The notes under the pieces were generated by a model. The model ran no database searches and had not been told where the DNA came from. It saw nothing but the letters and a program-made list of their open reading frames with translations. A program made the position numbers and the translations under genes. DNA of 64,000 nucleotides from Marsupella aquatica (lineage: Eukaryota; Plantae; Marchantiophyta), in assembly GCA_973895155.1 (NCBI GenBank), contig OZ316892.1:9404283-9468282 (forward strand), given 5' to 3'. The stretch's first letter is position 1, and each line of letters opens with the position of its first letter. This document shows positions 2,094-38,053 of this stretch, piece by piece.

Positions 2094-2821
2094 CACTAGT
2101 ACATTTTTGGTCTCTTTCCGATACTCAAATCGCGGCTTCTTTTAGCCGTCCGAAACCAAACGCATCGGACAACTTCCGATATTAAAACCATCGTAATTTC
2201 CGATTCATGATATATCGGAAATAAACGTACCGATGGAAAATGCTTCGCAAAAACTATCCCATACCAAAACTATCGAACAATGTCCGAAATTAATAGCATC
2301 GCAAAAAGACGACAAAAGTAAGGCTTTAGCTTCCGATGCAGTTACACTCGGACCTGAGGCTCGTTGGAAAAACAAACGGACATTGTCCGATATTTAAACC
2401 AACAAACATAATATTGGGAAAGACATTGCTTTGGAACCTACGTGCGATAGTTACAGTATCGGAAGTTGTCCAAAGGTAAGCATATCGGACCCCTCCTTCA
2501 TCATTTTTGCCAAGGGGTCCGATGGTTTCTGGAACGGAAAAATGTGTCCGATAGGTTTTGAATCGCATGTGTCCCGTCACTTTCAATATCGGAAAGAGGT
2601 TAGTTCTCCGGCCGAGTACCGATGCCTGTGCGATGTAGATTCCATGGGATTGACAATGGGACATTGTATTGTGGTCATGGTTTGATCCTGGATACTTGTA
2701 GCAATATAGTTTATGCAATGGTAGTGTGAGAACACATGAAATGCCGATAAATATGTAATACCAATAAAATAGCCACAAATAAGATGGTAGGGGTTAGCTA
2801 CGCCTTTGATGTACTAGATAT

Positions 2822-5800
2822 CTAACTAGTGGAGGGAATGTCAGTATCTTCCACTATAACTACGTTAGGTCTATCCTGGACGATGGATCGTGATCGTGGA
2901 ATGTATGGCATGACAATGGACCAATCTGAGTCATCTGGATAGGGTAGGTAAAAACATTGTTCAAGGTGATGGGGGAACGCAAAGGGATCTGAGGACCTCC
3001 AGTTTGAGCTGATGACACTATTTGCGGTTGTCTTCAACCGGGTAAAACCGCATGCATCATCTTCACATGTCCGGTTGTGGCCCACAAGATTCATCTTGAA
3101 CCATTTGCACTTTAATACCACTTCCTCCAAAGTAGTATGTGCATGGTACTTTATGGTAAGGATTTCCTCAATCTTTCCATAATGGGCGACGGTGGACCGA
3201 ATGGGATTCCTGTCTGATGTGCTACTCTGTGAATCTTGGGTGAACCAACCCATCACCCCACAATCTTGTGTAGCTGCCCTCTTCTCATCAAGTCGTTCAA
3301 CACGAAAATGTCTCCCCTTGGACCACATGGCTGTCCGAGTCGTGACTATAAGTAGTGGACCATGAATCAAGGTATGAAGCTTATCAGTCACCTTTGGGAA
3401 GTGTGATATGCTCTCCCCAATACCCACCAAGGCATCCACTTCTAGCATCTTTGACTTCATGTATGGGTGAAACTTGGGAAATAATCGTGGTCGCCGACTA
3501 TTTTTCTTCTCCTCCTCATAAAGTGTTGTCCACTCCCCTACAACCTCTGGTGAATTATACAACATAAATGTTGTGAGCTGCAAACGCTCCGCTGAGCTCA
3601 AGAGACGCTCTCCTGATGCCCCAGTGAGTCTATCATCCTCATAGTCCGCCTCTCACGCTGCCTCATGTGTCCATCCCCTAGGAGCGTTAGGATCTAGTGT
3701 GGCAACTATGTTTGTACAATAAAACATACTCTCTGCTCCAAGATGACGCTCTGCAATGCTACCTTCCACCCTAGCGCGATTAGAGACGTACGACTTCATC
3801 ACCCCCATATAACGCTCAACCAAATACATCCATCGACAATGCACTGGGCCTGCAATTGCAACCTCATGCACTAAATGTATGAGAAAATGAACCTGGCCAT
3901 CAAAGAAAGAGGGAGGGAGTGCCTTCTCCAACCTACAAATAACCTCTACTCCAAATATCTCCATTGCAGCAATTTCATCCTCCTGTACCTCCTTCTGACA
4001 TACCCATCTCAAAAGCTTTCCCAATGACCAAAGGGCATCACGAAGTTCCTCACTACCCAATCCAATAATCGCAACTGGAATGACATGTTCTAGTAACCGA
4101 TGATAATCATGTGTTTTCAAGTAAGATGGCCATTTTGGAGAATCATCCCCCCCAAATGCTTTTCGGAGATTTGCGCCATAACCTGTGGGAAACCTCATTG
4201 ACCCAATACGTCTGCGAAACTCAGTGCGCTCTGCCCTAGTCAAAACCCAAGGTGGATGGATGCTAGGGGGGTCTCCAGGGGGGTCCAAAGATGGCCAAAA
4301 ACCAAGAAGACCATGCATCCCCATCTCCTCACAACTTTCTCTCCAATTGTGGTTCTTCTCCCCATATAGATGACGAATCAATGACCTCCCCACATTCCCC
4401 TCAATGTGCATCGGATCTAACAAGTGATTAATGGGCATCTCTGACCAATATGGCAACTGTGATAATGCAGACAAACGGGTCATCCCACATCTGAGAAATT
4501 GTAATGGATCATCTGGGTCTTGAACTCTTTGCCATACCTCTCTCCAATATGCTGGATCCTTTCGCTGAGGTTGAGGACGGGTATCAGGTTGGCCCTCATC
4601 AGTGTCATACAGGAAGTGGTCACTCCTCCAAGGATGGTCTGCTGGAAGATATTTAGTATGACCAATGTAAACTATCTTCCGCAAAGTAGTTGACTTGTGT
4701 CTTGCCACTCCCTCCAAATCTGGTCCACATGAAGGGCAAGCTCGATAGCCTGATGTTTGCAATCCAGAGATATATCCAAACCCTATGATTGGTCAAGGGA
4801 CAGCCAGCCAATGAAAGAAGGTTAGAGAAAAGAATACAATTTTTAATTAAGTGCAAGATTGATGAAATAGGGTTAAATTAATTGCAAGGTTTACTGTGAT
4901 TACCTGGTAAATCATGCATGGTCCACATAAGAATGGCCTTGAGGGTGAATGCGCGAGATAAACCTCCAGTGTTGCGAAGTCTGTCATAACAATCCACTCC
5001 CCTCCAAAGTTGCAAAAGCTCATCAATCAAAGGTTGCAAGTAGATGTCAATCTTTTTTACTTGCTTAGGACCCGGGATGATCATTGAGAGTAGTAGATGA
5101 CCTTTCTTCATGGCCATCCATGGAGGGATATTGTAGTTTGTTAGAACTACTGGCCATACTGAATATGGTTTTGCTTTACCTGCCAATGCAAAAGGGCTAA
5201 TACCATCTGCTGCCAATCCAAGTCTCACAAGTCGTGGGTCAGTTTTGAACTCACCCCATCTATCCTCTACAAATTGATTGGCAGGAGAGTCAACCATCAT
5301 TCGCATGGCACTAGAGTCTGTACCCATATCAGAACGATGTTGTGAGTGCCATACCATATACTCAGCCAACTCTGCACAATGGTATTGATTTCGCAATCGA
5401 GGGATGAGAGGAAAATACCGCATAACTTTTTGAGGCACCTTCCCTGTCAACATGTCATCACGGTACCGCGGCTTCTCACACTCAGGACATATGATTGCAT
5501 TTTCATGCTCACCCCTAAATAGAATGCAGTCATTTACACATGCATGTATCACTTCATACTTTAGACCAATGGACTTCAACACCTGTTTAGCCTCCTTCCA
5601 AGACCTTGGCATGTTGTTGCCTGGTGGTAAAATGCGATCATGTAGGGTACGAAAAACATCATCCAAAAGTAGGTTGCTGGCCCCATGTCTTTGTTGCACA
5701 TTCAACAATAACATTATTGCTGAGAGCCGAGATAACCTACTCCCCTCAAATATGCGAGTACGAGCATGACGTTGAGCCTCTTCCCATTCCTTCTGCTGGC

Positions 5801-6050
5801 CCCCCCTAGAAGGATGAGTGGTGTTGTCGTCGGTGAAACCCATCTCCTCCATACCAATATCAGCATCATCTTCATAAAATTGGTTCATGAGCTCATCCAT
5901 GGCCTCCTCATCTTCAAGCCGATCTTGGGTAGAGTCATCATCCTCATGTTGTACCTCATTCTCCTCCCCATCATTCGCCACCATGGCCTCAACAAGGTGT
6001 TGCCGCATAGCTCGTGATATTACCCCAATATCAGGCACCACATATTGATT
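2822..6050 (-). CDS. CACTA TnpD-type transposase of element B (Transposase_21 + DUF4218 + DUF4216-like); intron about 4784-4903; one in-frame TGA at 3653-3655
   Basis: ORFs 4878-6041, 3653-4762, 2822-3601: HACVNDCILF, LGLAADGISPF, WTMHDLP, LDPMHIEGN, GPVHCRWMY, VVLKCKWF; AG acceptor at 6052-6051. Confidence 0.93.
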
Positions 6051-6170
6051 CTATCATACAACATCAATGCATGCAATCTCATCAACATCAATATTGTGAA
6101 CAACCAATTATCCAATGTTAAAAATGGAAAAGAATCCGATATATATATGTATATATGTAAGTCCAAGAAA

Positions 6171-7111
6171 CTATCTTGGACGGGAACGTAGGGACAATTT
6201 TGGTGCATCCCACTCATAATCACACAATAACTCCTCACCAGCTCTAATGGTCCTAACAGCGACCGTCATGATGTGATCATCCATATGTTTCACAAAATAT
6301 GGAGCTCTAGGTGGACCAAACATCTGGATCCACTCTACATTAGCCTCCAAATCTCTACCTCTACCCGTGGTACTATTGATGTACCCTGCTAAATTACAAT
6401 TCCGAACAGGGTCACCATCAATCATCCTACAATGCCACGGCCTAGTGAAGACCTCGTCTGGGTCTGAGTCCATCCTTAATGCGTACACCCCCCAACTTGG
6501 GTGTTGACGCAACAAAATGTTCCAACTCTTAGCGTTGTATACAGCTCCAATGTAAGGGAAAAGGTGCTCTCCATCATAGCCACGTCTCCATGGCTTTGGA
6601 GGGACAATAATGTCCTCCAAAGCATATAGACCATATCCTATATCAGCACCAATGGAGGAATCTTTCACTATCCAAGAGTGACCCCATATCTCAACCAGTT
6701 CATTAATAGGAATGTAGTCTGGAAATTTGAAGAGACTAGGATCAAAGTCTTTCAAAATGTCAGCTGCCCTACCAGTGAGATAAGATGCTCCAAACCGTCC
6801 ATCAACCCCAATATAATCTACGTTGTTGGATGGTCGGGCACTGCCTAACACCTCCTCCCTATTGTCTACCTGTTCCAGTGGCTCATATTGCCGTCTACGT
6901 CTACGAGACCGTGGTCGTGTACGTAGGACTCTTGTACACCCAACCTCCGGTCGAGAGACCGGTTCACCCTCTACATGCTCGACTATGGGGATAGGAGCAG
7001 GGGGCTAAGAGGTGGATGGGCAAGGGATGCAAGCAAGTCCCTTGCCCTTGCTAGAAACCCTTCTAGCCACACAGCATCATCAACCAAAGGAGGTGGGGGT
7101 CTACGAGGCAC
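6171..7111 (-). CDS. SET-domain (lysine methyltransferase-like) exon of CACTA B; 1-bp frameshift in the G-run near 7000
   Basis: GYGLYALEDI, LAGYINST, RTIRAGEELLCDY motifs in ORF 6171-6851; AG acceptor at 7113-7112 then a Pro-rich linker. Confidence 0.85.
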
Positions 7112-7228
7112 CTATTTCAACACACAATAAATTAAGTAGTGTTATTTGAATGCAAGCTAATTATATACAATATTTCACCAATTGCCGTTTCATGAAATGA
7201 AAGGGGGGATGTATGTATAATTATTTAC

Positions 7229-7459
7229 CTGGCTAGGCAAATAACCTGGCATATCACCCTCATGGCGACCATAGTTCTCAATGTGTTCACAAGTCTCCCA
7301 GGCATGTCGAACCACAAGTCCCTTGCATCTCACACACCAGCAAGGTATGGGCCCTAGTGGAGCACGAGGATGGTCAAGAGGAGGGGATGGAGGAACCTCC
7401 CCCTCGGACAAGCTCGTGTTAGAGTCTGAATCCGATGTGGAACTATCGGATGTAGACAT
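7229..7459 (-). CDS. 5' exon of the CACTA B transposase gene (transposase-associated Cys/His domain)
   Basis: CWCVRC...HAWETCEHIENYG resembles the CACTA transposase-associated domain; phase-0 donor CAG|GTAAAT at 7228. Confidence 0.7.
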
Positions 7460-8638
7460 CTACATACATATCCAACATGTAAGTTAGATTAAACAACTTC
7501 TTGTGTCGATGTATATACAAACATAATTAAGGAGATTTACATAGAGAGACATTGCCCTACGTACCTCAATGATACCCGCGCTTTGCTGTGCCTATTGGGC
7601 TATATTCTCGACACACAAAGTGTGGGATATCCAAAGTCTCTGCAAGGTGGGCATTTCAATAGTGAGCTAAGTGAAAAAAGTGCACGACATGCACACCTCG
7701 GCAAACGATGTGTCAAACTTGCCAAAGTAAACCTCTATGTTACAACCTGAGGAGAATACATGGATGGGCCAAGAAACATCATACCTCTTGGATGCGCGGT
7801 CTCACGCTATGCATAGTGCATTATCAAAAAAGACTACCAACCCCCCTCAAAAAAACTAATTAACCTACCCCTCCATGCCAAAATCAAGGTACTGCACATC
7901 ATATCCAAACACAAACATTAGCCTAACAATGGCTTCATGTTATCATAAGAAAATGTACAACACTATCCTCATAAAAACCCTAAACCAATGTCTCAAGCAA
8001 GACTATATAAGAATTGCATCATTATAGCCTAACATATTAGGTATGCACAACCAGAGTAAAATTATCCCCCAAAAAATGAAAATCAAGAACAAACCCAAAA
8101 ATTGTATCCGTGAAGAAGGAACTAGTATGCACAAGAGTCACATGCACGTCACGGTCACCCTCCCAGTGAGGTATGTATCACCCTACATCAAAAAACCTGT
8201 CAATTCAAATGGAAAGAAAATGTTAACACAACCATACCCAACCCAAATTCAAAAAACCCCAAAACTCTAGAATCCATACCCAATTCAACCCATTTAACTA
8301 AACACATCACACCCCCTTAATTTGGGAAGAAAAGGTGCATCCGAAAGAATTCTACGAGGGGTCCGATACTATAAGAAACGAACAAACCTTGGCAAACAAA
8401 AGGCAACCCATGCCATTAACAACGAGGGGTCCGATGTCAAACATATCGGAAGGTCCGATACCAATACCGATGTTCTAGGCTTCGGAAATTCCGAAGCAAT
8501 TTGCATCGGACGCAACAGGCCAGATTTCAAAAAAGAAGTCCCGACGCTGGTGCGAAGACCCGCGAGTCGGGACAAGCTTTGCACTTGACACTTAGGCTAT
8601 TGTCGAGGCTGGGAGGGGAGCTCAAAGGAGGAGGGGAG

Positions 8639-11163
8639 ATGGTGGGAGGCGAATCTGGTGGTGGGGATGGGGCTGGACCTTCTCGGGCATACGATGAGGT
8701 GATGAAGGAGATTTTTGTTGCTAGGGCCGGGTTGAGTGTGGAGGATGCAGCTAGAGTAGTCCTGCTTTTGCAGACCTTGTTTGATGCCTCAAAGATTGAG
8801 GCTCAGAAAGCTGCTGTAGCAGCCATTGCAGCTGCAAAGAAGAAGAAGAAGGAGGCAAAGAGAAGCAGGGCAGATGCAGAGGAGTCTCTCTCTCCTCGAA
8901 AACGAGAGAAGAAGCTTCGGAGGGAGGCTAGGGAAGCTGAGAAGGGGCGAGTAGAGGAGCTCAAGTGAAAGGAAGCAGAGAGAGCTTTGAGGCCTGAGCT
9001 ACCCCTAAACTCAGGTGGCTCTCCATTACCCAGGGGCTACAATCTCTTTCGCAGCCAATTCAAACAAGTGGTGCGGGCCAATTTGGGGCCATTAGATTAC
9101 TGGGGCAAGAAGGAGGAAGAGAAATCCAGAATTCGAGAGCAAGTGAAAGAACGATTCAAGAACGGGGCACACATTGATGATAGGTTCTTGAACAAGAGGA
9201 TATCCGCCTCACTCTCAGACATGCGAAACCATCAAAGAGAGAAATTCAGGAACTACCTTGCTGAGATGCCGATGGATGCAGAGGTGGTCAGGGAGCAGGG
9301 CTGTCCAGATGCGCTTTCCTCAGATGAGTGGGCAGCTTGGCTTGAGGAGGAACTAGCAGTCCGAGCCTGGCTGCAAAAATGTCACTACAATCTCGAAATC
9401 AGCCTGGCAGAGGAGAAGAGGAAAGCTGGAGAGGAAATTGACATCCTCCCCCTCCAACAGATGCTATGACAGTGGCATGCACAAGAGGTAAGACTCCCCA
9501 AGCCACCAAAGGACATCATAGCAGCTTTGCAGCGAGTGCAAGGTCGACCTGTGGTCACTCACCGGATGGGGCAAGGCGGCTCCAATCGACTGAAGGCTGA
9601 ATTTGTAAGTCCCCTCTCCCTCCTCCCTAGCTCCTCCCCCCGACCACCTGACCTTCTGTTGTGAAGAGTGACCATTTTTTAGCCTCCAAATGCTTTAAAC
9701 CCTTTGCGGCCCGATGGTGTAATTTGCTCTCGGCCCTGTGCTTTCCGATAGGTGTCCGATTCTTTCTGCATCGGACCCGGCATCGGACCTCTTGTTATTC
9801 ATTTTTTGGCACTAACGTTCCGAGGCAGTTCCGATGCTAAGACAATCGGATGGAGAATCGGACCCCTCGTAGAAAGCTTAATTATCAGGTTTTGTGGCAT
9901 TTTTAGGGGGCTTATAGCAATAACTGTTTAACTTTGGTATTAGGTTTTAGGTGTTTCATGATTGAGTAGCACTTTGTGGAGTTTTTTAAATTAGGGTTAA
10001 ATTTGAGAACTAGTTTGATTAGGGGTTTATATATAGGGTATAGGATATGTATGGGTATGTGGCAGGGGTCCTATTTTAAATTAGGGTTTACTATGATAAC
10101 AGTTTTAATGAGGGGTATGTAGGGTGTGCATTATGGGGTCCAAGATTGCTTGGTTTCATGCTAATGGGATATTTTGTTTGGGACTGTGAACTGCCAGGAA
10201 AGGGAGTGGGGTAGACCTATTGGGCCATCCGAGAGGGATTTGGCAAAGAGGAATGGACCCCGCGCTCTTAAGCGCCACCTTGAGGATGAGTTGGGAGAGG
10301 TTTGTGTTCCCCCTAGGTTATGAAAATGTTTTTGGTTATGGTGAATTTGTTAGAGTTTTGGAGGCCCTATATAAACTAATTTAACAACAATTTAATCCTA
10401 GCTATGTATTGCGTAGGAGGAGGAGTCAGGATTGGATGAGGAGTCAGGTGGGGCAGGTGATGAGGATGCAGGTGATGAGGACGGTGGTGATGAGGATGCT
10501 GGTGATGAGGATGCTGGCGATGAGGATGCTGGTGATGAGAATGCAGGTGATGAGGATGCAGAGGATGCGGCAGGGTCGGCGAGAGTTGCCACGATTACCC
10601 CTATCCCTCATGTTGCCCCCACATCAGCAGAGGGTGCTGGTTCACATGATACTGATGGTGTGGGCTCCCATCATTCAGCAGCATCACGGGGTGGTAGGCC
10701 CGGGCCGTCAGGGGGTAGTAGAGGTCGTGTGGGACCAGGCCATCGGTCCGGGGTACATAGTGCACCAGCTGGCCCTCCACGACGAGGGACTAGTGACATA
10801 CAGGATGGTGGTTCTAGGGGGCAAGCGCCATCTCGTGAGTCTGGTGGGAGTACAGCACGGCACGGGCCAGAGACAACACATGCAGGTGGAGCATCCCATC
10901 ACTCGCGTAGGTCTACCGGAGAGGGCTCCTTCCACTCTGCTGTGTCGGGGGGTGGTGGGACATCTGTCTTGCCTGAGCACCGTAGTGGTGCATCTAGTGG
11001 TTCAGGGTCTAGACCTGCATCAGGCCAACCCACGCCATCCGCTGAGCAGGTGGCTACCACGGTTGTGGGCAGCCACCAACATGAGGGGTCTCGCGCTCCC
11101 GAACCTGTACCCCGCCCACGCTCTCGCCCAAAGAAGAAGAAGGGACGCAGCACACCTTTTTAG
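8639..11163 (+). pseudogene. Second gene of CACTA B (TnpA/Transposase_24-like), multi-exon, two in-frame TGA stops, acidic repeat tail and C-terminal basic NLS-like segment
   Basis: In-frame ORFs 8501-8968 and 8987-9469 continue to YRMGQGGSNRLKAEF and a GTAAGT donor at 9605; last exon 10432-11163 has (AGDED)n and RPKKKKGR. Confidence 0.6.
10450..10570 (+). repeat. 15-bp coding tandem repeat (GGTGATGAGGATGCW)n encoding AGDED
   Basis: About 7 units read directly. Confidence 0.85.
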
Positions 11164-11944
11164 AGGTTTGTGGTACATAGTGTCTGATAGCTTTGATTAG
11201 AGGTACCACATAGTGTAGGCCAGTTAGAGCCTCATTTTGGTGTTTCATGTAGCCGTCACCGGCCATATGGCTCTACTGCCTACCTAGGCCCATTTCATTT
11301 TGTACATATTGGGGTGTTCCCCATTGTGAAAACCTGATATTTAATTCAACCACTACCTTGCTTTGAGCATGCTCTTTGGACCCTATTTTGTCAATCTCAG
11401 CCTGAACCCTAAACCTAAACCCCCAAATGATTCCCATGAATCCAATATTAAACCCCCACAAACCCTAAATATCCATTATTAGTCAAGCCGGTGACCCAGC
11501 TCATATCCGATACCATACGCTACGGAACTTCCGAAGTAAACTATTTCGGACCCCTCCTCCCAAATGTCCGATATTTTCAGCATCGCAATTTGCGTTACAC
11601 ACCACTACGGATGTCCCGATACATATTGCTACGCAAACTCCGATATGTTTTACATCGGACTATCCCATATAAAATACATCGGACCCTTGATATTACCTTT
11701 TGGTGGGCCTATAGTATCCGATGAAATTAGAATCGGACACAAATTATCCGAAACATTCAGTAACGGATGTACCGATTGTATCAGAAACAGAAATTCCAAT
11801 GGATGTCCGATTGTCGATATCCGATGGGTGAAGTATGGGAAAGTGCGAAGTAAATCACATCGGACGGGTCATTTTTCTGCGTCAAAATTTCTGAAGGGGT
11901 CCGATGTTGTTAGGATCGGAAAAAGGGCCGAAAATGTACTAGTG

Positions 11945-12322
11945 TCTATTCAAACAAGCACCCCCATAAATAGATGTTCTAGCATGTGCCTCAGCTTCTT
12001 CCCATTATTTTTGTCCTTCAGGTGTACGTTGAGGCCTTGGATCATGTGCAACATTTGGTGGAGTATCTCCTTCATTGGGTGGGACACCTCCTTCACTACC
12101 AATGTCTACACCAAACCAATCTGTCATGAAGTCATCCATGGTTGACTCTTGGTCTTGCATGACCTCATAATCTGTCCGAGGTGCCCCTTCATCTGGACTG
12201 TCATTATCATTGTCACTTGATGAGGAATCTGCTGATGATGTTTCCCCGTGTTGTGGCAAGCCCATTTCTTGATATGTAGCTCTCAACCTCCTTGGCAACA
12301 TATCTTGACTAGGCCGCACATT
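11945..12322 (-). pseudogene. Acidic 5' part of the element A transposase exon
   Basis: EGQK*WEEAEAHART matches element B GGQQKEWEEAQRHART; AG|AAT acceptor at 12324-12323. Confidence 0.85.
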
Positions 12323-12659
12323 CTATAGACACTAGTACATATTAAGCTGATTTCCGATGCTCAATTTTTGCGAACAATCGGCGTCCGATTCTTTTAGCAT
12401 CGGAAATTCCGATTATCAAAAAATGGCAATATGCCATACTCTCGGCTTCGGATATCTTCATTTCTGATATAATTGACAACGGAACCTTTCCGATGCGTTA
12501 AAAAATGGATCATATCCATTAGAAAGCACATCGGATCCCTCAACAGAAACTTTGATTGATATGTCCGATGTTTTTTGTAACGAAAATGATGTGCGTTACA
12601 ATATTGATCGGAAACTTTCCGTAGTTAATAATAACGGATATTATATCCGATTGTGCTAA

Positions 12660-12842
12660 CATGGCAAAGTCCGATGTTGGAAGAATGGGAAAGTCCGATG
12701 CTGGGAGTATGGGAAAGTCCGATGCTAGAAGAATGGGAAAGTCCGATGCTGGAAGAATGGAAAAGTCCGATGCGGGGAGTATGGGAAAGTCCGATACTAG
12801 AAGAATGGGAAAGTCCGATGCTGGGAGTATGGGAAAGTCTGG
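12660..12842 (+). repeat. 24-bp tandem repeat (ATGGGAAAGTCCGATGCTRGRAGW-like), left array
   Basis: About 7.5 units; source of the spurious MGKSDAGS ORFs. Confidence 0.9.
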
Positions 12843-13685
12843 TTATGACAAAAAGAAAATTTTTGATTGTGTTAGAATGAAAAGTTTTGATGTGTTAGAT
12901 GGGGTATGTGGTTGCACCGACATACTCTTCCCAAAAGATGCAATCATTCTTGCATGCATGAATAACTTCATACTTGAGGCAAATGGACTTGAGTGTTGTT
13001 TTTGCCTCATTCCAAGACCCAACATATTGTTCCCTTACGGAAATATGTGCTCAACATGCCAAGTCCAAAATACATCATCTAGAAGGAGGTTGCTTGTCCC
13101 ATGTAGTCTTTGTTGCAAGTCCAACAACAACATAGTTGATAAAAGATGAGACAATCAGGAGCCATTGACGTTGAGGCTTTGGAAGGACCAAAATATCATC
13201 CATAACTAATAAGCCATAATTATCCCATATCAAATCTAATGAAGGAGGGCTTTACTATCGATGAATGACCCCTGCCAGATTTCTATTGGTTTCTCCTAGG
13301 GGAATGTAATAGGGTAACTAGAATAGGTCACTTGATGCAAAGATCTAATCTCATGATAGAGAAAAATGGATCAAGAATGGGTCCAAATTATGGGTCTTAG
13401 TAAACTCACAAGTGTATAAAATCCCCAAACACTCTAAGTCAAACAACAAAAGTGCTAAGCTTGCATGTACAATGTAAGGAATAAGAACCACAAAGTTAAG
13501 CTCATGTTGGAGGAATAGCAATTGGGATGGGTGACCAATTAGTTGAGAAAATTTGAAGAGTTCACATGTCTTGGAGATGGGCACCTAGCTCATAGTTCCA
13601 AATGAAAGTAGAAACCCAATTAAAGGAAGAGATGGGTGACCTGAGCATGTCGCATCCGCTGAAATGCATATCCCATTTTGATTGC

Positions 13686-13866
13686 TTCGGACTTTCCCAT
13701 TCTCCTAGCATCGGACTTTCCCATTCTCTCACCATCGGACTTTCCCATTCTCCTAGCATCGGACTTTCCCATTCTCTCACCATCGGACTTTCCCATTCTC
13801 CTAGCATTGGACTTTCCCATTCTCCCACCATCGGACTTTCCCATTCTCCCACCATCGGACTTTCCG
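13686..13866 (-). repeat. 24-bp tandem repeat, right array, inverted relative to the left array
   Basis: About 7.5 units of CATCGGACTTTCCCATTCTCNNAN. Confidence 0.9.
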
Positions 13867-14045
13867 ATAGAAGTCCGATTGTCGATATCCGATACTATTA
13901 AAATGGCATGTTGCGATGCTAGTAGTATCGGATATATGGTTTTTCAAAATTTATTTTACAAAGGCATCCGATGTGGAGAGAATCGGAAAAAGGAGGTAAA
14001 ATGTACTAGTGAGACAATACAATAAAGCATTCACAATGAAATTAA

Positions 14046-14209
14046 TGTTGTAACCATTTACTCTAGACCATGGTTAACCCCTAACCCTATCCTGAAGGGG
14101 TAACATGGGTTAACACCAACCCCAACATGTAACCCTATGGTGACTATATAAGTCACACCCATAATGGAACACAACAGTGAGTTGCAAGTCTCTCCATTGT
14201 CACACAACA
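14046..14209 (+). repeat. Copia 5' LTR
   Basis: Direct repeat of 19665-19828. Confidence 0.97.
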
Positions 14210-14663
14210 CGTTATCAGCGCGATAGCATCTAAATTTTTTTTCAGTTTGGAGTTAAGGTAGGATAATTGGAGTACGGCTTTCAGACAAAGAAATTGACTT
14301 CCAATGTTGCGTTTTTAGCCCCACCACACATCAGTAACTGCCACCGATTCAAATCACACCATAATTTAAACTTCGGATCCTCTGAATAGTCCACGAATCC
14401 TTACGGAAAACACACAATCCGTATATAATTGATTAGTGACACTATCGGAGAGGCATGAATCACTTTGAAATAGTGTTTTCCCGTTCAAATTCGACTCAAT
14501 TTTTTTTATATCTTATTGTTCCGCCACGGAAATCCTGAGTTTCTTTTATCGCCAAGGAAAATCCCGTGGATAAAAAGGCACGAGTGATTGAAGTAATTGA
14601 GAACGACATAGATTTGATATTAATCAGAACGCGGACAGTGATTTGTTACAGATTTGAGATACT

Positions 14664-17504
14664 ATGGCCACCCTGGAGAAATTACACTTTCCAGCCCTAT
14701 TGGCAGATGGCAATAATTACTTAACCTGGTCAATAGATGTAGAGACCTACTTCGCATCAATACAACTAGAGGATACATTAATTACTGATGACAATTTAAC
14801 ATTGCAACAGAAGGCCAAAGCTGTATTTCTACTTAGACAGCATTTGACACCATCACTGAAGACACAATATATGAGTGATCTTAATCCCCGTCTATTATGG
14901 GACAAATTAAAAGCTCGATTTGACCATATGCGAGAGGTCTGGCTCCCAGAAGCCCGCAGGGATTGGTTTAATCTACGTGTCATGGATCATACTTCTATAG
15001 CAAATTATAATAGTTCTCTATTTCGTATTACATCTCAATTGGAGATGTGTGGCCACCCAGTTGCAGACTTAGACAAAATCGATAAAACGTTGAGTACTTT
15101 CCCAGAGGCCAACATCGCCTTGGGAACTCAATACAGGAATATGCAATTCACAACTTATTCTAACTTAATTGCACATCTCCTAGTAGAGGAGAAACAACAA
15201 ATTGTCTCTCTACAGAATGCAAGGAAACGACCACCAGGCACTGCACCAATACCACAGAAACCAGAAATTAATTACAATGCCCCAGAAGACCAACAACGAA
15301 ATATAAGAGGCCGGGGTACACAAAGAGGTGGATATAGAGGACGAGGTCGCAACTCAAATTATAGTGGAAGGGGAAATCAGTATGAAAATACCAGAGGTCG
15401 AGGCAGCAGAAGCCGTGGCCGGGGTAGAGGAAGAGGACGCGGCAGAGGTCACGCCCAATCATCTGACAACACACGAGAAGACCGAATGTATTATAGATGT
15501 GGAAAAATTGGCCACCTAAAGAAAGACTGCTGGGCTTCTGACCAAGCGGCTAAGAGGCACTCAGAAGCAAGAGCTAAGTTAAAGCAAAATCCAGATGGCA
15601 ACTATATGGAATTGGAAGAGGAGCTACCATCTTATCGAGAAGAAACTGATATGATAGACCAATCCAACGCTGAAGCTCATCTGGTGACAGCAGAGCCACC
15701 ATATCCCTCCTCCAACGATCCCAATTTAGGTATCATTGATAGTGGGACATCCCACACTATCCTAAAAGATAGGAGTTATTTCCAAGACATCACTCCATCT
15801 GCCAGGATAATGACAACCATATCAGGTACGAATAAGATTGAGGAAGGAACAGGAAAGGCTACTGTCAAATTTCCCCAAGGAACAGTCATTAACATCGAAG
15901 CAGCTATCTTTGCACCAAAAGCTACTCGAAATTTGATTAGCTTCAAAGACGTTGTTGCTAATAATTATCAACTCCGCACAGCAATGCTCCAGCAGAAACC
16001 TACTTTGCAAATAGTAGCCATGACCACAGATGGAATTCAAATCAAAGAGATACTACCTCTAATACCCCCGGGTTTATATGCAGCCCCAATAACAGCGAAC
16101 TATGCCACAGCAGAATCAAATAATCTTACATACCTCTGGCACTGTCGACTGGGGCACCCGGGAATAAATATGTATCGTCGCATCATCAATGACTCACGAG
16201 GAATCCCTAAAGGAGTGCGTCCATCTATAAATCATAAGCAATGTCTGGCATGTTCTCAGGGGAAGCTGAGTACACGCCCAGCTACACAAAAGACCATCTA
16301 TACTATCCCTAAATTCCTGGAACGTCTAAATGCTGATGTCTGCGGGCCAATACACCCTCCAAGTGGGCCTTTCAGATATTTTTTAGCCATTGTAGACTCT
16401 TCAACTAAATGGCTCCAAGTTTCATTAATTTCTACTCGTAACCTGGTCTTTGCCAGAATCTTAGCCAACTTATTAAAACTTCGAGTACAATTCCCAGATT
16501 GTCCAATTAAGAAATTGCGAGTGGACGGGGCAAGGGAATTTACCTCCAGAGCATTTGACGACTTCTGTATGACAGCGGGGATCGACATTGAATACTCAGT
16601 TCCTTACGTCCATTTCCAGAACGGCATAGCAGAGTCAGTCATAAAAAGGATTCAAATGATAACAAGGCCACTTCTATTGAACTCTAAACTACCACCTTCA
16701 GCATGGGGACACGCTGTCCTCCATGCAACAACTTTGCTTAAGTATCGGCCGTCAGCATTTAATACTAAAACCCCTCATCACCTTGCATTCGGTTTACCCC
16801 CTGATCTTTCACACATTAGAGTATTCGGATGTAAAGTGATGGTACCCATCCTTGGGCCACATCGATCCAAACTTGGCCCACAGAGAAGAGAAGGTATTTA
16901 TATTGGCCATGACTCCTCGTCTATTATCCGCTATCTGGAACCTAGCACAGCTGATGTATTTAAAGCAAGACACGCTGACTGCCATTTCTATGAGGAAATT
17001 TTCCCCTCATTACTTAAGGCGCCAACTACATCACACGACATAACACCAGTACAACTCAATTGGAATAGCAGAAATCTACTCAATCAAGATCCAAGAACTC
17101 AAAGTGCAGACGAGGAGGTAAGGCGCTTATTACATCTCCACGAAATGTTGGAAAAGATTCCTGACGCTTTCAATGATGCAGCAAATGTGACCAGATCACA
17201 TGTTGAAGCAGTCAATACCCCAGCTCGGATTCAGCTGCTGCCAACTCAAGCAAAGGAAACCTTACCTAAGGCGAAGAGAGGACGCCCACTAGGATCCACT
17301 GATTCTCGCCCTCGCCAGAGACGTGCACAAACGGTAAATACTGAAACCACATTTAATCTGGTCAGTATCGAACCAGAGAAAAAGAGGGCACCAGATAATG
17401 AAGAAATGTCTATTCAATACACACACAGGACACATTTATGCTCGATCAAACACAATAATAGACGAGCAGTTTGCTTATCATATAGCCCAATCCATCTCAA
17501 ATAA
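14664..17504 (+). CDS. Copia gag-protease-integrase
   Basis: 946 aa; knuckle YYRCGKIGHLKKDC (first Cys lost), protease IIDSGTS, WHCRLGHP, integrase D-D-E (RVDGAREF, QNGIAE). Confidence 0.95.
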   Translation: MATLEKLHFPALLADGNNYLTWSIDVETYFASIQLEDTLITDDNLTLQQKAKAVFLLRQHLTPSLKTQYMSDLNPRLLWDKLKARFDHMREVWLPEARRDWFNLRVMDHTSIANYNSSLFRITSQLEMCGHPVADLDKIDKTLSTFPEANIALGTQYRNMQFTTYSNLIAHLLVEEKQQIVSLQNARKRPPGTAPIPQKPEINYNAPEDQQRNIRGRGTQRGGYRGRGRNSNYSGRGNQYENTRGRGSRSRGRGRGRGRGRGHAQSSDNTREDRMYYRCGKIGHLKKDCWASDQAAKRHSEARAKLKQNPDGNYMELEEELPSYREETDMIDQSNAEAHLVTAEPPYPSSNDPNLGIIDSGTSHTILKDRSYFQDITPSARIMTTISGTNKIEEGTGKATVKFPQGTVINIEAAIFAPKATRNLISFKDVVANNYQLRTAMLQQKPTLQIVAMTTDGIQIKEILPLIPPGLYAAPITANYATAESNNLTYLWHCRLGHPGINMYRRIINDSRGIPKGVRPSINHKQCLACSQGKLSTRPATQKTIYTIPKFLERLNADVCGPIHPPSGPFRYFLAIVDSSTKWLQVSLISTRNLVFARILANLLKLRVQFPDCPIKKLRVDGAREFTSRAFDDFCMTAGIDIEYSVPYVHFQNGIAESVIKRIQMITRPLLLNSKLPPSAWGHAVLHATTLLKYRPSAFNTKTPHHLAFGLPPDLSHIRVFGCKVMVPILGPHRSKLGPQRREGIYIGHDSSSIIRYLEPSTADVFKARHADCHFYEEIFPSLLKAPTTSHDITPVQLNWNSRNLLNQDPRTQSADEEVRRLLHLHEMLEKIPDAFNDAANVTRSHVEAVNTPARIQLLPTQAKETLPKAKRGRPLGSTDSRPRQRRAQTVNTETTFNLVSIEPEKKRAPDNEEMSIQYTHRTHLCSIKHNNRRAVCLSYSPIHLK

Positions 17505-19302
17505 TACACCTGATCCCTATACAATCAAAGAAGCACAGAAAAGGCCCGATTGGCCACAGTGGAGAGAGGCTATCAATACAGAAATGGACGCATTAATCAA
17601 AAGACAAGTATTCGGCCCAGTTAAGGTTGTACAACCAAAGAATGACTATACAGATAGTCGTTTTATATTCGTTAGAAAACGCAATGCCCAAGGAGATGTC
17701 ATAAGATATCGAGCAAGGCTTGTAGCGAAAGGCTACACCCAAATCCCTAGAAGAGATTACGATTTAACCTATTCGCCAGTTATGGATGTAACTACCTTTA
17801 GGTACTTAATATCTTTTTCAAGAAAGCATAAACTCAAAAACATACTCATGGACGTGGTAACTGCGTACCTATATGGAGTCTTAGACTCCGAAATATATAT
17901 GAAAGCTCCAAAGGAATTGCTCGAAAGAGTGGTAGAGCACATCCAGGGGAAGAATATACATACCCTAAGTCAGGACATGAAGTCGGGACTTCGACAGATT
18001 GTCCCTGATGATGACATTAAAGGCCTAGTGTTGAGCAGTGGCAACACACTCAAAGAACCACTCCAGTACCCAGGTAAATATGGGACTGGACAGCAGGCAT
18101 TTGCTGTGCAAGTCCTTAAATCAATAAACGGACTGAAACAGAGCGGACGCATCTGGTATCAGACATTCAAAACTAAGATGCAGACTCTTGGCTTTATAAA
18201 TGACGACCTCGCCCCTTGCATTTTTATAAAACACCTAGCACCTGAGTTCGTGATATTAGCACTATATGTTGATGACGTCAATCTGTTCGGCACCCCCAAG
18301 CTATTAAAGCAGACTATTAATACAATGAAGGGCATCTTCGAAATGAAAGAACTGGGAGAACCGACGTATTGCCTCGGTCTACAGTTCGACCACCTGCCAC
18401 AAGGTATGTTTATTAGTCAATCAACTTACACAAAGAAAATTCTTCGACAGTTTAACATGCAGAATGCTTACTCAGTCTCGACTCCCATGGAGATGCGATC
18501 CCTGGACACCACTAAAGATATGTTTAGAAGGAGACAAGAAAATGAACCACTTCTTGATGCAGACAAGCCTTATTTATCTGCAATCGGAGCTCTCCTCTAT
18601 CTGGCGAACAACACCCGTCCCGACATTTCATTTGCAGTGAGTCTCTTGGCACGACATAGCGCCCAACCTACTATTCGCCACTGGAACGGCATCAAACGAC
18701 TATTTTGTTATCTTCAAGGCTCCATGGATATGGGCCTGTATTTCGCCAATGATAACCCGGATGAACTGCAAGGATACGCGGACGCTGGATATCTATCCGA
18801 TCCGCATGACTCGAAATCTCAGACTGGTTATGTCTTCTTGCAAGGCAACACAGCAATATCATGGCGCAGTACAAAACAAACCTTGACTACCACATCGTCC
18901 AATCATTCAGAAGTAATAGCTCTTTACGAAGCAACAAGAGAAGCGCTATGGCTTCGAAACATCATAAACCACATCCGCAAGAATACTGGTAAGCCACTAC
19001 TCACCAAACCGACGATTATCCATGAAGATAACAAAGCTTGCGTGGACCAAATCAATGCAGGATATATGAAGACAGACCGCACGAAGCATATCGACCCAAA
19101 ATTTTTCTTTACCCATGAACAGATAGGGCAGCACATCAATGTGCACTGGAAGAGCTCCCAGGAGAACTGTGCTGATCTATTCACGAAGCCATTACCCGCC
19201 AGCCTCCATCGAAAGCACGTAGCAGCGATCGGCATGACAAGATTGTCGACATTGCGCCCGCCCGTCGACACACAAACGAGAGAAACTCCACAGTTTGAAT
19301 GA
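17398..19302 (+). CDS. Copia reverse transcriptase-RNase H, frameshifted from the upstream ORF at an (AC)n tract near 17419-17427
   Basis: YRARLVAKG, LYVDD, GYADAGY, IHEDNKAC, ADLFTK. Confidence 0.95.
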   Translation: MKKCLFNTHTGHIYARSNTIIDEQFAYHIAQSISNNTPDPYTIKEAQKRPDWPQWREAINTEMDALIKRQVFGPVKVVQPKNDYTDSRFIFVRKRNAQGDVIRYRARLVAKGYTQIPRRDYDLTYSPVMDVTTFRYLISFSRKHKLKNILMDVVTAYLYGVLDSEIYMKAPKELLERVVEHIQGKNIHTLSQDMKSGLRQIVPDDDIKGLVLSSGNTLKEPLQYPGKYGTGQQAFAVQVLKSINGLKQSGRIWYQTFKTKMQTLGFINDDLAPCIFIKHLAPEFVILALYVDDVNLFGTPKLLKQTINTMKGIFEMKELGEPTYCLGLQFDHLPQGMFISQSTYTKKILRQFNMQNAYSVSTPMEMRSLDTTKDMFRRRQENEPLLDADKPYLSAIGALLYLANNTRPDISFAVSLLARHSAQPTIRHWNGIKRLFCYLQGSMDMGLYFANDNPDELQGYADAGYLSDPHDSKSQTGYVFLQGNTAISWRSTKQTLTTTSSNHSEVIALYEATREALWLRNIINHIRKNTGKPLLTKPTIIHEDNKACVDQINAGYMKTDRTKHIDPKFFFTHEQIGQHINVHWKSSQENCADLFTKPLPASLHRKHVAAIGMTRLSTLRPPVDTQTRETPQFE

Positions 19303-19664
19303 GCAGCTCGAGCCGACAGACGACAGCCGACTCGACGACGATGCAACCTAAAACTTTCATTCCTGTATACATAGACAGAATACGATTTCTCATACCAATA
19401 CAAGATAGAATAATTATTATCGTAAACACCCCATTTAAACTAAAGGGAAGTAGTTTTAGTAATAGGGGACCCAAATTAAACTTTACATTTGGACAAATTA
19501 TAAGGTAGACTCACCTTAGTGCAAATTTAAGAAAATCCTACTAATGGTGGCTAGAACCCTTTTTCCTTATGAAGAAAGCAGAAGGTTTTAATGGGGCAGC
19601 ACCAAAAATAAACATAGGGTTAGTAGTGTGGTGATTTTATACCCCTAAACTCTCCAAGGGGAAG

Positions 19665-19828
19665 TGTTGTAACCATTTACTCTAGACCATGGTTAACCCC
19701 TAACCCTATCCTGAAGGGGTAACATGGGTTAACACCAACCCCAACATGTAACCCTATGGTGACTATATAAGTCACACCCATAATGGAACACAACAGTGAG
19801 TTGCAAGTCTCTCCATTGTCACACAACA
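19665..19828 (+). repeat. Copia 3' LTR
   Basis: Direct repeat of 14046-14209, preceded by PPT. Confidence 0.97.
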
Positions 19829-19945
19829 ATTAACTCCAAATATAGTAGTGCTCGAAACATATTATTAACAATATAAAAAGAACATGTCATTACAAAACAT
19901 ACGTTCACATACGATGAACATATAATACATGTCCCTAAAGTAATC

Positions 19946-20761
19946 CTAATCCCATTCATAATGTGTAAACAACTCCTCTCCAGCCAAAATGGTCCTATTA
20001 GCTACAACTAGACAATGGTCATGATGATATCTCTGCCCATAAGGGGCTGGAGGGGGACCATCAACAAAAACCCATTCACAGTTTTTCCTACACTTAGGCC
20101 GGGTCCCCACAGTACTGTTGATGAAACCGGCAATATTCCCACTACGGATGGGATCACCATCAATTATACGCTGGTCACAATACTTTCTGGTGCAACCATC
20201 AAAAGTATCCATGTCCAATGCATAGGTCTTCCACTCAGGGTGTTGAACAAGGATCATGTTCCAATGTCTCCTCTTGTAAATGGGTCCACCATACGGGAAC
20301 AACGTTGGTCCATCCGAAGAGCGCCCTTTTCCACCCATATCATCCACAATAATGTCCTGACAAGAGAAAATCCCATACCCATGCCTCTCCCCTAGGGTTG
20401 AACTCTTGACAACCCAATGTCTTCCCCAAATTTCTATCTCCTCACCATAGGTTATATCACATGGCAAACCAAGGCACTCCGGATTCCAATCCTTTATGAT
20501 AGGAACACACTTCCCTGTGAAGGTACAAGGGCCCCATCTACCATCAACCCTACAAGTGTACTGATCCACTTCCCCTCTAGGCTGTCTTTTTGACTTTTTT
20601 TTCCCTCTTGTAACAATACCGTCACCCTGAATTGTCCCAACACTACCTTGCCCTGCTGCCACTAAACGAAAAGCTTGTGAAAGTGCCGAGCCTATAGCAT
20701 CTAGAACTCCTTGTGAGGGAACATAGGGTGTTGGTGTAGTGGGTGTAGGCCTACTAGATAC
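19946..20761 (-). CDS. SET-domain exon of CACTA A (open frame)
   Basis: GYGIFSCQDI, IAGFINST, RTILAGEELFTHY; homologous to 6171-6851 (EIWG.W.VK.S, LFPY.G, IDGDP.R); phase-0 acceptor TTCCTATAG|GTA at 20762. Confidence 0.87.
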   Translation of the reverse strand, partial: VSSRPTPTTPTPYVPSQGVLDAIGSALSQAFRLVAAGQGSVGTIQGDGIVTRGKKKSKRQPRGEVDQYTCRVDGRWGPCTFTGKCVPIIKDWNPECLGLPCDITYGEEIEIWGRHWVVKSSTLGERHGYGIFSCQDIIVDDMGGKGRSSDGPTLFPYGGPIYKRRHWNMILVQHPEWKTYALDMDTFDGCTRKYCDQRIIDGDPIRSGNIAGFINSTVGTRPKCRKNCEWVFVDGPPPAPYGQRYHHDHCLVVANRTILAGEELFTHYEWD

Positions 20762-21184
20762 CTATAGGAAGAAATGGAACCAAGTGAGTGTGATGAACCT
20801 CCCAAATTTTATTTTATGCTACCTACACTAGAAGAAAACAGGGCCCTTTATGACCAATCACCCAATGACGGAGATGAATAAATGACCAAAATTTCTAATG
20901 ACACAAAAAGAATGACAGGGGAATGACTGTCCACAATGACCAATAGACCAAAATGACAAAATGTTAACTTTTGCGTCATTTTGTATAATGTTTGTAATGA
21001 CTGATGTGACCAAAATGACCCAATTTCCTTAAATGGTCAATTTAGATACATGTCCTAAATGACACAATTAATAACAACAATGATAAATCAGTGTTTAGCA
21101 ACATTATAGTCACTCTGGACAACGGTGATAAATGACAAAAAATGTATTACCGTCATTTTAACCAACGGTGTTAAATGACGGTAA

Positions 21185-21780
21185 TATAGGGTCAATCTGA
21201 AAATGAGAATATATCAGTGTTTACAACAATATATTGTCATTATGGATTTCACCCATAAATGACTAACTCTAGGGTCAATCTTGAAATTAGGACATATCAA
21301 TGTTTACAAGAACATACCGTCATTATGGACTTCTCTCATAAATGACTAACTCTAGGGTCAACCTTAAAATTAGGACATATCAATGTTTACAAGAACATAC
21401 CGTCATTATGGACTTCTCTCATAAATGACTAACTCCAGAGTCAATCTTGAAATTATGATATATCAGTGTTTACAAGAACACACCGTCATTATGGACTTCT
21501 CTCATAAATGACTAACTCCAGAGTCAATCTTGAAATTATGATATATCAGTGTTTACAAGAACATACCGTCATTATGGACTTATCTCATAAATGACTAACT
21601 CTAGAGTCAATCTTGAAATTATGATATATCGGTGTTTACAACAACATATTGTCATTATGGACTTGTCGCATAAATGTCTAAATATAGGGTCAATCTAAAA
21701 ATCATGATATATCAATGTTTACAATAACATACAGTCATTATGGACTTATTGCATAAATGACTACTTATAGAGTCATTAAA
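21185..21780. repeat. 83-bp tandem array (about 7 copies), each with inverted GTCATT...AATGAC
   Basis: Unit marker AGRGTCAAYCTT recurs every 83 bp (about 21270, 21353, 21436, 21519, 21602, 21685). Confidence 0.9.
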
Positions 21781-21859
21781 GAACCCAAGAGATATGAAGA
21801 TTAAAATACTCAATAGTCATTCCAGACACCGGTCATAATTGTAGAGTCATTGATATAGT

Positions 21860-24800
21860 TGATAACCCTTCCACTAAGTGCGGGACACAATAGTCATCAT
21901 TGTCCTCCCATTGGTTACGGCATTAGCAATTTGAACACATGTCTTGCATTTACTTTAGGCATGATGCACCTAGCTTTGGGGAAATCACTCCCAAGTCATA
22001 CACCTTTGGAGTGATTTTCCATAAGTGTCACCATATATAGATGCACGCATACTATCGTATCCAAAGGCAAATGAAACATTTTTGTCTCTCCAAGAAGTAG
22101 GGCAATACCAATGGAAGGTTGTCATCCTTTGTTGTAATTGTGTCATGTTTGTGCCGGTGTTTGGATGGGGAATATTTTAATTTGCAAATAAATAGTGATG
22201 GGGCATTCAAGGAGCTAGTGTAATCTTTATTGGGTCATTTCAAAAAACATTTGCATCATAAATACCAATGACTACAAGTAGAGTCATTAAATTTGTCATA
22301 TGGACTGTGATATAAGTCAAGTGACTGGACTTGTGGTCATTTGTGTGGTCCCTCATGCAGTCATTAAACACAAGCACAAATGACCAGTTTGGGGCTAGGG
22401 GCTGGAGGTGGGCCCTAGAGTGCCATGGGGCCCCACATAGAGGTGAGAACCCCTCCACTGGGTGTGGGACACTATACTCATCATTGTCCAACCACTAGTT
22501 GCGACAAAAACACTTTGGACACATGTTTTTGCGTTTACTTAAGACATGATGCACCTTTGGGGAAATCACTCCCAAGTCGTACGACTTTGGAGTGATTTGC
22601 CAAAAGTGTCACCATGCATGCATACCATCACATCCAAAGGCAAAAAAAAGTTGTTTTTTGGTTCTCCAAGAGGTAGTGTTGCACCAATTGAATGGGCAGG
22701 GGAGTTGTGCTTCTCAGTATGGTGTGGGTGCGGGATTAGGGAAGAGGAATATTCCAATCTTGCAAGGAATCTAAAGTTGGCTCTCTTTGAAGGTACTAGG
22801 GTCTTTATTGGGTCATATGTGAGCAATGGCCCATCATTAATACCAATGACTAAAAGTAGGGTCATTAAAACTGTCATATAGAGAGTCATATCAGTCTAAT
22901 GACTGGATTTGTGGTCATTTGAGGGGTCCCTCCTGCAATAATTAAGGAAAAGCACAAATGACCAGTTTGGGGTTAGGGGCTGGAGGTGGGCCCTAAAGTG
23001 CCATGTGGCACCACATAGAGCTCGCAACCCCTCCACTAGGTGTCAAATACTATAATTACTATTCTCCAACCACTAGTTGCACCATTAGCAGTTTGGAGCC
23101 ATGTTTTTGTGTTTACTTAAGGAATGATATAATCTTGGGGAAATCACTCCCAAGTCATACGACTTTGGAGTGATTTGCCAAAAGTGTCACCATTGATGCA
23201 TACCGTCCTATCTAAAAGGAAATGAAGCCATTTTTTTTGTCTCTACAAGAAGTAGTGCAAGGCTGTTGTCCTTCCATGTAATTGTGTTATGTTTGTGCCG
23301 GTGTTTGGATGGGGAATATTCTATTTTGCAAATGAATAGTGATGGGGCACTCAAGAAGGTAGTGTAATCTTCATTGACTCATTTCTGAAAAAATTGGTGT
23401 CATAAATACCAATGACTACAAGTAGGGTCATTAAATCTATCATATGGGCTGTCACATAAGTCAAATGACTGGATTTGTGGTCATTTGAGGGGTCCTTTGT
23501 GCAATCATTAAGCAGAAGCACAAATGACCAGTTTGGGGTTAGGGGCTGGAGGTGGGCCCTAGAGTGCCATGGGGCCCCACATAGAGCTGAGAACCCCCTC
23601 CACTAGTTGCGGGACACTATACTCATCATTGTCCAACCACTAGTTGTGCCATGAACACTTTGGACACATGTTTTTGTGTTTACTTAAGGCATGATGCACC
23701 TTGGGGAAATCACTCCAAAGTCATACAACTTTGGAGTGATTTGTCAAAAGTGTCACCATGGATGCATACCACCGTATCCAAGCGCAAATGGAGCCATTTT
23801 TTGTCTCTCCAAGAAGTAGCGCAACACCAATGGAAGGTTGTCATCTTGTGATGTAATTGTGTCGTGTTTGTGCCGGTGTTTGGATGGGGAATACTCCATT
23901 TTGCATATGAATAGTGTCGGGGCATTGTGAGTAGGTGTTGTAATCTTCATTGGGTCATTTTGGAGGAATAGTGTGTCATAATGCCAAAGACTACAGTAAG
24001 GGTCATTTTTGCAGTCATTTTGGAAGTCATTTGTGCACAATGACTGCATATGGGGTCATTATAGAGGTCCCTCATGGTGTCATTATGGACCATCAGAAAT
24101 GACCATTTTGAGTCTAGGAGCTTAAGGTGGCCCTAGTGTGCCATGGGGCCCTACATGAAGGTGGCAACCTCTCCACTAGGTGTAGGGTACTATACCCACT
24201 ATTCTCCAACCACTAGTTGCACCATGAACACTTTGGAGCCATGTTTTTGCATTTTGTTAAGGCATGATGGAACCTTGGGGAAATTACTCCCAAGGCATAC
24301 GGCTTTGGAGTGATTTGCCAAAAGTGTCACCATGGATGTATACCACCACATTCAAAGTTAAATAATAGTTGATTTCTTGTTCTCTAAGAGTAAGCACAAA
24401 ACCAGTGGAAAGTTGTTGTCCTTCAATTTAACTATGTCATGTTTGTGCTGGCGTTTGGGTGAGGAATATTCTATTAAATTGCTAAGGATTTGCCAGGGGC
24501 CACTCCGATAGGTAGTGTAATCTTCACTGGGTCATTTTGGAGGAATGGTGTGTCATTAAAGCCAATGACTACCATATGGTCATTTTGGCAGTCATTTGGA
24601 CCAAAGACTGCATACCTGGTCATTACAGAGGTCCCTCATGCTGTCATTAGGGACCAACCTAAATGACCAGTTTGGGGATAAGGGCTGGAAGTGGGCCCTA
24701 GACTGCCATGGGGCCCTACATGGAGCTGGCAACCTTTCCAATAGGTGCGGGACACTATACTTACTATTCTCCAACCACTAGTTGCACTATGAGCACTTTG

Positions 24801-27279: not shown

Positions 27280-27356
27280 TAGCCCTCCACTTAAATTTCG
27301 TCGTGTCCCCACAAGACATGACCGAATTGAATCAGAAGCGAGTGACATGTTCTTCA

Positions 27357-27833: not shown

Positions 27834-27845
27834 AAATGGTGTCCT

Positions 27846-36800: not shown

Positions 36801-36835
36801 GGTTTTCTTTTATTCGGTGGATCTCCCTCAGACAT
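30809..36835 (-). CDS. Gypsy gag-pol in one reading frame with three in-frame stops (TAG 35297, TGA 33782, TAG 33395)
   Basis: ORFs 35297-36835, 33782-35215, 33395-33760 and 30809-33388 share a frame; CCHC knuckles, protease VDGGAS, RT FIDD, RNase H DSS/TDH, integrase WGIDF; no chromodomain. Confidence 0.95.
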
Positions 36836-38047: not shown

Positions 38048-38053
38048 AAAAGA

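Follow-up and report, generated by a model that had tools for sequence, protein, structure and literature searches.

A SET-domain exon ahead of the transposase exons of two nested CACTA transposons in the liverwort Marsupella aquatica

The locus described here is a window of 64,000 nucleotides from the liverwort Marsupella aquatica (GenBank assembly GCA_973895155.1, contig OZ316892.1, positions 9,404,283 to 9,468,282 of the forward strand), the whole stretch of DNA that was analysed. It contains two DNA transposons of the CACTA type, A and B, each of which carries an exon encoding a SET domain ahead of its transposase. The two elements are nested, with B lying within the transposase of the older element A. 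Both SET open reading frames (ORFs) are on the minus strand, and they run from stop to stop over 6171-7004 in B and 19946-20761 in A. Element B is a CACTA/EnSpm element, as given by its terminal inverted repeat (TIR) with a 3-bp target-site duplication (TSD), its Tnp2-family transposase, and its subterminal repeats. Its features are the following, a stroke marking the splice point in splice-site motifs.

2094-11944, no strand assigned: element B, a complete CACTA transposon of 9851 bp, TIR CACTAGTACATTTT (14/14), TSD TCT
2822-6050, minus strand: B transposase exons (Transposase_21, DUF4218, DUF4216), with the phase-0 acceptor TAG/AAT at 6050
6171-7111, minus strand: B SET exon, consisting of a phase-0 acceptor at 7111, a Pro/Arg-rich linker, the SET domain, and a stop
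7229-7459, minus strand: first coding exon of B, 77 aa, with a Ser-rich leader and a CxCxxC-x13-H-x3-G zinc-finger-like motif
8420-11163, plus strand: divergent multi-exon gene of B, upstream of SET on the opposite strand, with a homologue likewise placed in six related loci

The empty site of element B is present in all four public sequencing runs, whose contigs join 2089 to 11944. The motif CCGAT/ATCGG reaches 16 per kb at one end and 14 per kb at the other, where it forms the subterminal repeats, and is present at 0-2 per kb over the transposase and SET exons and at 6-9 per kb over 8001-10000. The transposase matches Transposase_21 (E 3.8e-39) and DUF4218 (E 2.3e-30), contains an intron near 4793-4877, and harbors the C(2)C and H(3-4)H motifs of the Tnp2 family as CPSC and HFLIH, the motif definitions being those of PMC12730594. 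The divergent gene, which gave no match in a Pfam scan of 8420-11163, is probably a TnpA-like second gene.

In element A, the same region is interrupted by younger insertions.

1-2093, minus strand: remainder of the A transposase, with several stops and frameshifts, continuing past the window edge
11945-12322, minus strand: first part of the A transposase, with the acceptor TAG/AAT at 12322
12330-14011, no strand assigned: element C, a non-autonomous CACTA element with a B-type TIR and TSD AGA, between the A SET stop and the transposase acceptor
14046-19828, plus strand: copia retrotransposon with identical 164-bp long terminal repeats (LTRs) and TSD ATTAA, in the same SET-transposase spacer of A
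19946-20761, minus strand: SET exon of A, with a phase-0 acceptor followed by 271 open codons, stopping 3 residues past the C-terminal Tyr
20826-20839, plus strand: CACTA-like terminus of a further element in the first intron of A, its partner end not found

The termini and the upstream part of element A lie outside the window. Two relatives (L006 and L008) share sequence that begins at exactly a CACTA terminus, beyond which their flanks differ. Three relatives free of the insertions (L002, L004, and L008) are collinear over all three junctions. A tblastn search of the window, including the part beyond the terminus at 20826, found no zinc-finger exon for A. Position 25900 was considered as the far end of the element starting at 20826 and rejected, as it falls in the LTR of a gypsy element. 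Element C (1.68 kb, with 24-bp tandem repeats and a transposase fragment) has a second copy at 56694-58373. Since the two copies are 98.4% identical and carry B-type TIRs, a B-type transposase may have been active recently.

With 25.2 and 29.9 bits, both SET ORFs exceed the 22.4-bit Pfam cut-off for SET, and their alignment over 201 aa gives 46% identity (E 2e-59), in agreement with the original prediction of two homologous but well-diverged SET ORFs, which left their strand unstated. The motifs that it singled out, namely GxG, (Y/F)IN, and GEELxxxY, are kept as GYGLY/GYGIF, AGYINST/AGFINST, and GEELLCDY/GEELFTHY, and the two peculiarities that it reported, NST in place of NHS and the absence of post-SET cysteines, are seen in both ORFs. 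The ORFs are thus real, but the starts proposed for them at 6851 and 20662 are internal, as the exons begin at the acceptors at 7111 (B) and 20761 (A). The claim that SET stops 120-150 bp before the transposase exon stands: once the nested insertions are removed, the SET stop and the TAG/AAT acceptor are 120 nt apart in B and 150 nt apart in A, and the insertion-free relatives show the same collinear order. The window copy of the B SET exon carries a 1-nt frameshift near 6999, and contigs from two of the four runs have an extra G at 6999. Read depth over SET resembled that over the transposase in three of the four runs, a comparison left unused because contig depth does not equal copy number.

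The order of coding exons in B is zinc finger, SET, transposase. Phase 0 is shared by the donor of the zinc-finger exon (CAG/GTAAAT), the SET acceptor at 7111, and the transposase acceptor at 6050. Since this single donor fits both acceptors alike, the SET exon is likely an alternative last exon within the transposase gene, as judged from splice phases. CACTA transposases normally start with a transposase-associated domain (PF13963, Pfam cut-off 27.7 bits), and the zinc-finger exon of B is likely a diverged form of it, given that three of seven homologous segments match the same region of the model weakly (E 0.001, 0.052, and 0.11, all below the cut-off). An Atlas search with the zinc-finger exon returned no usable match. 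En/Spm elements are known to yield two proteins via alternative splicing, and Arabidopsis EN/SPM families alternate between spliced and split-gene layouts (PMC13547354). The original prediction had overlooked the zinc-finger exon, the probable position of SET inside the transposase unit, and prior reports of SET cargo in transposons.

A metagenome scan identified 31 loci, comprising 22 plant-like loci (L001-L022), one distant locus (L023), and eight GC-rich bacterial-type SETs. Among the plant-like loci, a transposase exon is found 3' of SET in 14 and a zinc-finger exon 5' of SET in 10; in the remaining ones, the sequence ends too early or is interrupted. The donor is in phase 0 in 10/10 zinc-finger exons, the SET acceptor is in frame in 9/10, and the TAG/AAT transposase acceptor is found in A, B, and 13 loci. 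A protein library clustered at 50% identity contained 95 matches at E ≤0.001 and 61 at 1e-10. Among the 30 proteins looked up, the only species names were those of the liverworts Calypogeia fissa and Riccia sorocarpa. The Calypogeia model (P0001) joins the same zinc-finger and SET exons in frame, and a Riccia model (P0082) holds SET and Transposase_21 together, although the Riccia SET-transposase fusions are automatic predictions and are evidence of adjacency only. Three more distant homologues come from the fern Ceratopteris. Locus L023 (562-1062) and the proteins P0157, P0164, and P0165 form a remoter clade within this SET family, to which the Ceratopteris proteins belong.

In a tree of 101 SET rows, made by a quick search only, with six bacterial-type SETs included and host SET genes left out, A and B are placed in separate subgroups, with Calypogeia P0001 nearest to B. 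Because the bacterial-type SETs attach on a long branch (2.6), no origin is claimed for the element SET. Searches for protein homologues found no host SET gene close to it. The 52 pattern matches in viral contigs included no relative. A search for longer fused forms of 882-2515 aa found none among 2582 candidates, which is weak evidence. Viral fold matches (template modeling score about 0.5, 16-18% identity) and Atlas look-alikes in haptophyte and giant-virus SET clusters are leads only.

The ratio of nonsynonymous to synonymous substitution rates (dN/dS) in SET is 0.20 for A versus L001, 0.16 for A versus L002, and 0.28 for L001 versus L002, and it is 0.22 for B versus A, for which dS is near saturation. 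All 95% bootstrap intervals of these between-family ratios lie below 0.45, with dS of 0.45-2.5, and the corresponding transposase ratios are 0.11-0.12. These substitution patterns indicate that the SET exon is under purifying selection between families. Values of dS are alike in the SET and transposase regions (1.27 versus 1.01 and 2.47 versus 1.94), consistent with the two having descended together. Within the L002 family, the SET ratio is mostly 0.5-1.4, and this, together with the stops described below, is the decay expected of copies after insertion. The view of SET as stable cargo rather than a one-off captured fragment is upheld by the conserved position in several families, the selection, and the similarity of dS to that of the transposase; the role of chromatin writer or decoy that the original prediction gave to it is still a prediction. 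In place of the three outcomes that could have undone it (no SET fold, dN/dS near 1, a sporadic exon), the analysis found a modeled SET fold, dN/dS of 0.16-0.28, and an exon position kept in several families.

The fold was modeled from 49 sequences, which replaced a poor model from 16 sequences (predicted local distance difference test, pLDDT, 67). The new model has a pLDDT of 93.9, and its structural matches are SET domains only. Against Set1 it gives a Z score of 12.3 (root-mean-square deviation 2.6, 124 aligned residues), against EZH2 and SET8 11.9, against PRDM3 11.2, and against PRDM5 and LegAS4 11.1, so that the spread from Set1 to LegAS4 is about one unit; Foldseek gave 303 matches at E ≤0.001. 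Since enzymes acting on H3K4, H3K27, H4K20, and H3K14 match about equally (Z 11.1-12.3), no particular lysine or activating mark is implied. In the 49-row alignment, the glycines of GxG are conserved in 46 and 48 rows, the Asn of the S-adenosylmethionine site in 44, the Glu of GEEL in 47, and the C-terminal Tyr, which corresponds to the catalytic Tyr of the ELxF/YDY motif of SET methyltransferases, in 45, and rows 25-73% identical to B still keep GxG, Asn, and Tyr. No match to PF01555 (N6-adenine methylase) was found in A, B, or the relatives scanned.

In the mechanism proposed for these elements, transcription would start from a single promoter at about mid-element, and the zinc-finger exon of the transcript would have two possible splice partners: the SET exon with its terminal stop or, if SET is skipped, the transposase. 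We regard this alternative splicing as probable. The zinc finger, common to both products, would be the targeting part that takes SET to the element or to the transposition complex. There, SET would add methyl groups to a histone lysine on copies of the element itself and so oppose their silencing. The SET protein is predicted to be catalytically active with somewhat better than even confidence, and the prediction of histone lysine methylation at own copies with an anti-silencing effect, taken overall, falls a little short of even. The full reading, in which an old bryophyte CACTA lineage splices the zinc finger of its transposase onto an active minimal SET domain that methylates histones on copies of this lineage specifically, is put forward tentatively. 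What the analysis establishes is the exon order, the matching splice phases, the SET fold of the model, and the purifying selection.

Several observations weigh against this reading. Both window copies are decayed, B having stops in the transposase (3653-3655) and in the divergent gene (8966, where three of the four runs read CGA) and A having a broken transposase; stops also occur in 10 of 18 aligned locus copies. Since 20 of the 22 plant-like loci belong to one family (91-100% identity), only four families, A, B, L001, and the L002 group, are clearly independent at the DNA level. The zinc-finger exon of B itself has no match to PF13963, and its matching homologues stay below the cut-off. No spliced read was observed; contig joints near introns in the four runs differ from the exact intron ends and were not counted as splicing. 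The NHS/CxxPN signature is altered, with the His position occupied by Ser in 47/49 rows and by Asn in 2/49, the final Asn being invariant. The tail after the Tyr, where a post-SET segment would close the lysine channel, mostly comprises 2-18 residues over the 49 rows (3 in A and 14 in B) and contains no cysteine cluster. Very short post-SET segments have been tied to inactivity in PRDM constructs (PMC3178901), and LegAS4, an active enzyme lacking the same His, depends on its ankyrin domain for activity (PMC10653858).

The alternative that survives best, possible but doubtful, keeps the zinc-finger-SET protein as an active methyltransferase and gives it a non-histone target, such as the transposase or the TnpA-like protein, or a self-limiting repressive mark. 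An N-terminus held in common with the transposase could bring the protein into the same complex, and a fold that resembles enzymes of several specificities about equally implies no activating mark. On the other hand, similar transposon cargo has been interpreted as anti-silencing (PMC12730594, Bostrychia preprint), an interpretation that is itself conjectural for SET cargo.

An unlikely alternative is a catalytically dead SET domain that works as a reader or decoy by binding either histone tails or silencing factors of the host. The loss of the NHS His from 49/49 rows, the near absence of a post-SET segment, and the presence of PR domains (PRDM3 and PRDM5) among the tied fold matches all agree with it. 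Against it speak the retention of GxG, Asn, and Tyr across divergent rows and the example of Legionella RomA/LegAS4 (PDB 8swi, 5czy), the solved structure that matches best both in sequence and by Foldseek, which likewise lacks the His (YINFS) and methylates H3K14 (PMC10653858), so that such a SET can be active. LegAS4 differs in being bacterial, in its 18-residue post-SET segment, and in its need for ankyrin repeats, and its identity of 21-28% implies no close kinship.

According to another reading, which also appears improbable, the zinc-finger-SET unit is a separate gene upstream, and the transposase starts at an internal Met without alternative splicing. Such a Met does lie 8 codons (A, L002 group) or 15 codons (B) into the transposase exon, and split-gene layouts occur in Arabidopsis EN/SPM families (PMC13547354). 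However, 13 loci as well as A and B conserve the TAG/AAT acceptor in frame with the zinc-finger donor, a mere 120-150 nt separates the SET stop from that acceptor, and the zinc finger resembles the N-terminal domain of transposases. This reading concerns layout only and can be combined with any functional one. Finally, if SET were a piece of a captured host gene that rides along neutrally, the within-family dN/dS of mostly 0.5-1.4 would fit, but this is the decay expected of copies, between-family ratios are 0.16-0.28 at dS of 0.45-2.5, and no close host SET gene was found, so that this idea is largely refuted.

The window holds further elements. A third CACTA element has a transposase at 46850-49447 that is 39% identical to that of B, and no SET match. 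A frameshifted exon just 5' of it (46419-46890, plus strand) encodes NSD-like PHD fingers (PHD-1st_NSD, E 2.3e-5, below the cut-off), possibly a chromatin reader in a position equivalent to that of SET. This element is split by a large insertion at about 49745-63200 and resumes at 63269. The insertion carries an N6/N4 DNA methylase segment (52499-53110, PF01555 above the cut-off), an ORF at 55551-56402 with no Pfam match and with what we take to be a ParB-like DGNHR motif, and, at 58842-62709, divergent ORFs that contain a SWIM-like motif and have related sequence in L016. The insertion resembles the PAG2/PAG3 cassette of red algae. ATGAC-rich arrays at 20826-25330 and 39500-39900, with 83-bp and about 575-bp units, start at the CACTA-like terminus and are probably another element, far end not found, interrupted by a gypsy element. 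This gypsy retrotransposon (25886-39445) has 1395-bp LTRs that are 99.9% identical and an extra 881-codon ORF (27846-30491, minus strand) with no Pfam match. A further LTR element (41343-44326) has identical 143-bp LTRs and no recognizable long coding region.

SET cargo in transposons is already known, having been reported for HarbingerS and oomycete MuDR elements (PMC12730594) and, in the Bostrychia preprint (bioRxiv 10.1101/2025.02.11.637652), for Helitrons and for the Plavaka elements of red algae, which belong to the EnSpm/CACTA superfamily. A full-text literature search, whose coverage left out most subscription papers and Repbase, found no land-plant CACTA element with SET and no such exon layout. 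Plavaka PAG2 is similar in that SET is stably carried by a DNA transposon of the same superfamily, with a proposed chromatin role. By its published description, PAG2 is a separate accessory gene in a three-gene cassette, with SET fused to an N6-adenine methylase, whereas SET here occurs in land plants without a methylase partner, linked to a zinc-finger exon and ahead of a canonical Transposase_21 gene. HarbingerS, oomycete MuDR, and Helitron elements also encode SET proteins, but they belong to other superfamilies and hosts and, according to the citing papers (PMC12730594, Bostrychia preprint), carry them as accessory genes and not as an exon inside the transposase unit; the transposase here is Transposase_21 and not of the Harbinger type. 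Maize and Arabidopsis En/Spm elements likewise obtain two proteins, TnpA and TnpD, from one CACTA transcription unit by alternative splicing (PMC13547354); their second product is TnpA, whereas here it would be zinc-finger-SET, the probable TnpA-like gene being on the opposite strand. SETMAR also places SET next to a transposase, but it is a host gene fusion with a mariner transposase and not mobile cargo (PMC8704517). VANC of VANDAL elements provides a working model of an element-encoded protein that alters the chromatin of its own element; VANDAL belongs to the Mutator superfamily, and VANC is not described as a SET enzyme in the citing papers. According to these, no transposon other than VANDAL is known to modify its own sequence, and they report no functional test of SET cargo (PMC12730594, Bostrychia preprint).

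If the proposed reading is true, these elements would be the first land-plant transposons to encode a histone writer directed at their own copies, with one transcript giving rise to both writer and transposase. The layout suggests both targeting and dosing, as the N-terminus would be held in common with the transposase and the amount of writer per transposase would depend on a single splice choice. With its small domain, several families, selection, and liverwort hosts, this SET family lends itself to a direct test of whether histone marks on a transposon can be written by the transposon itself.

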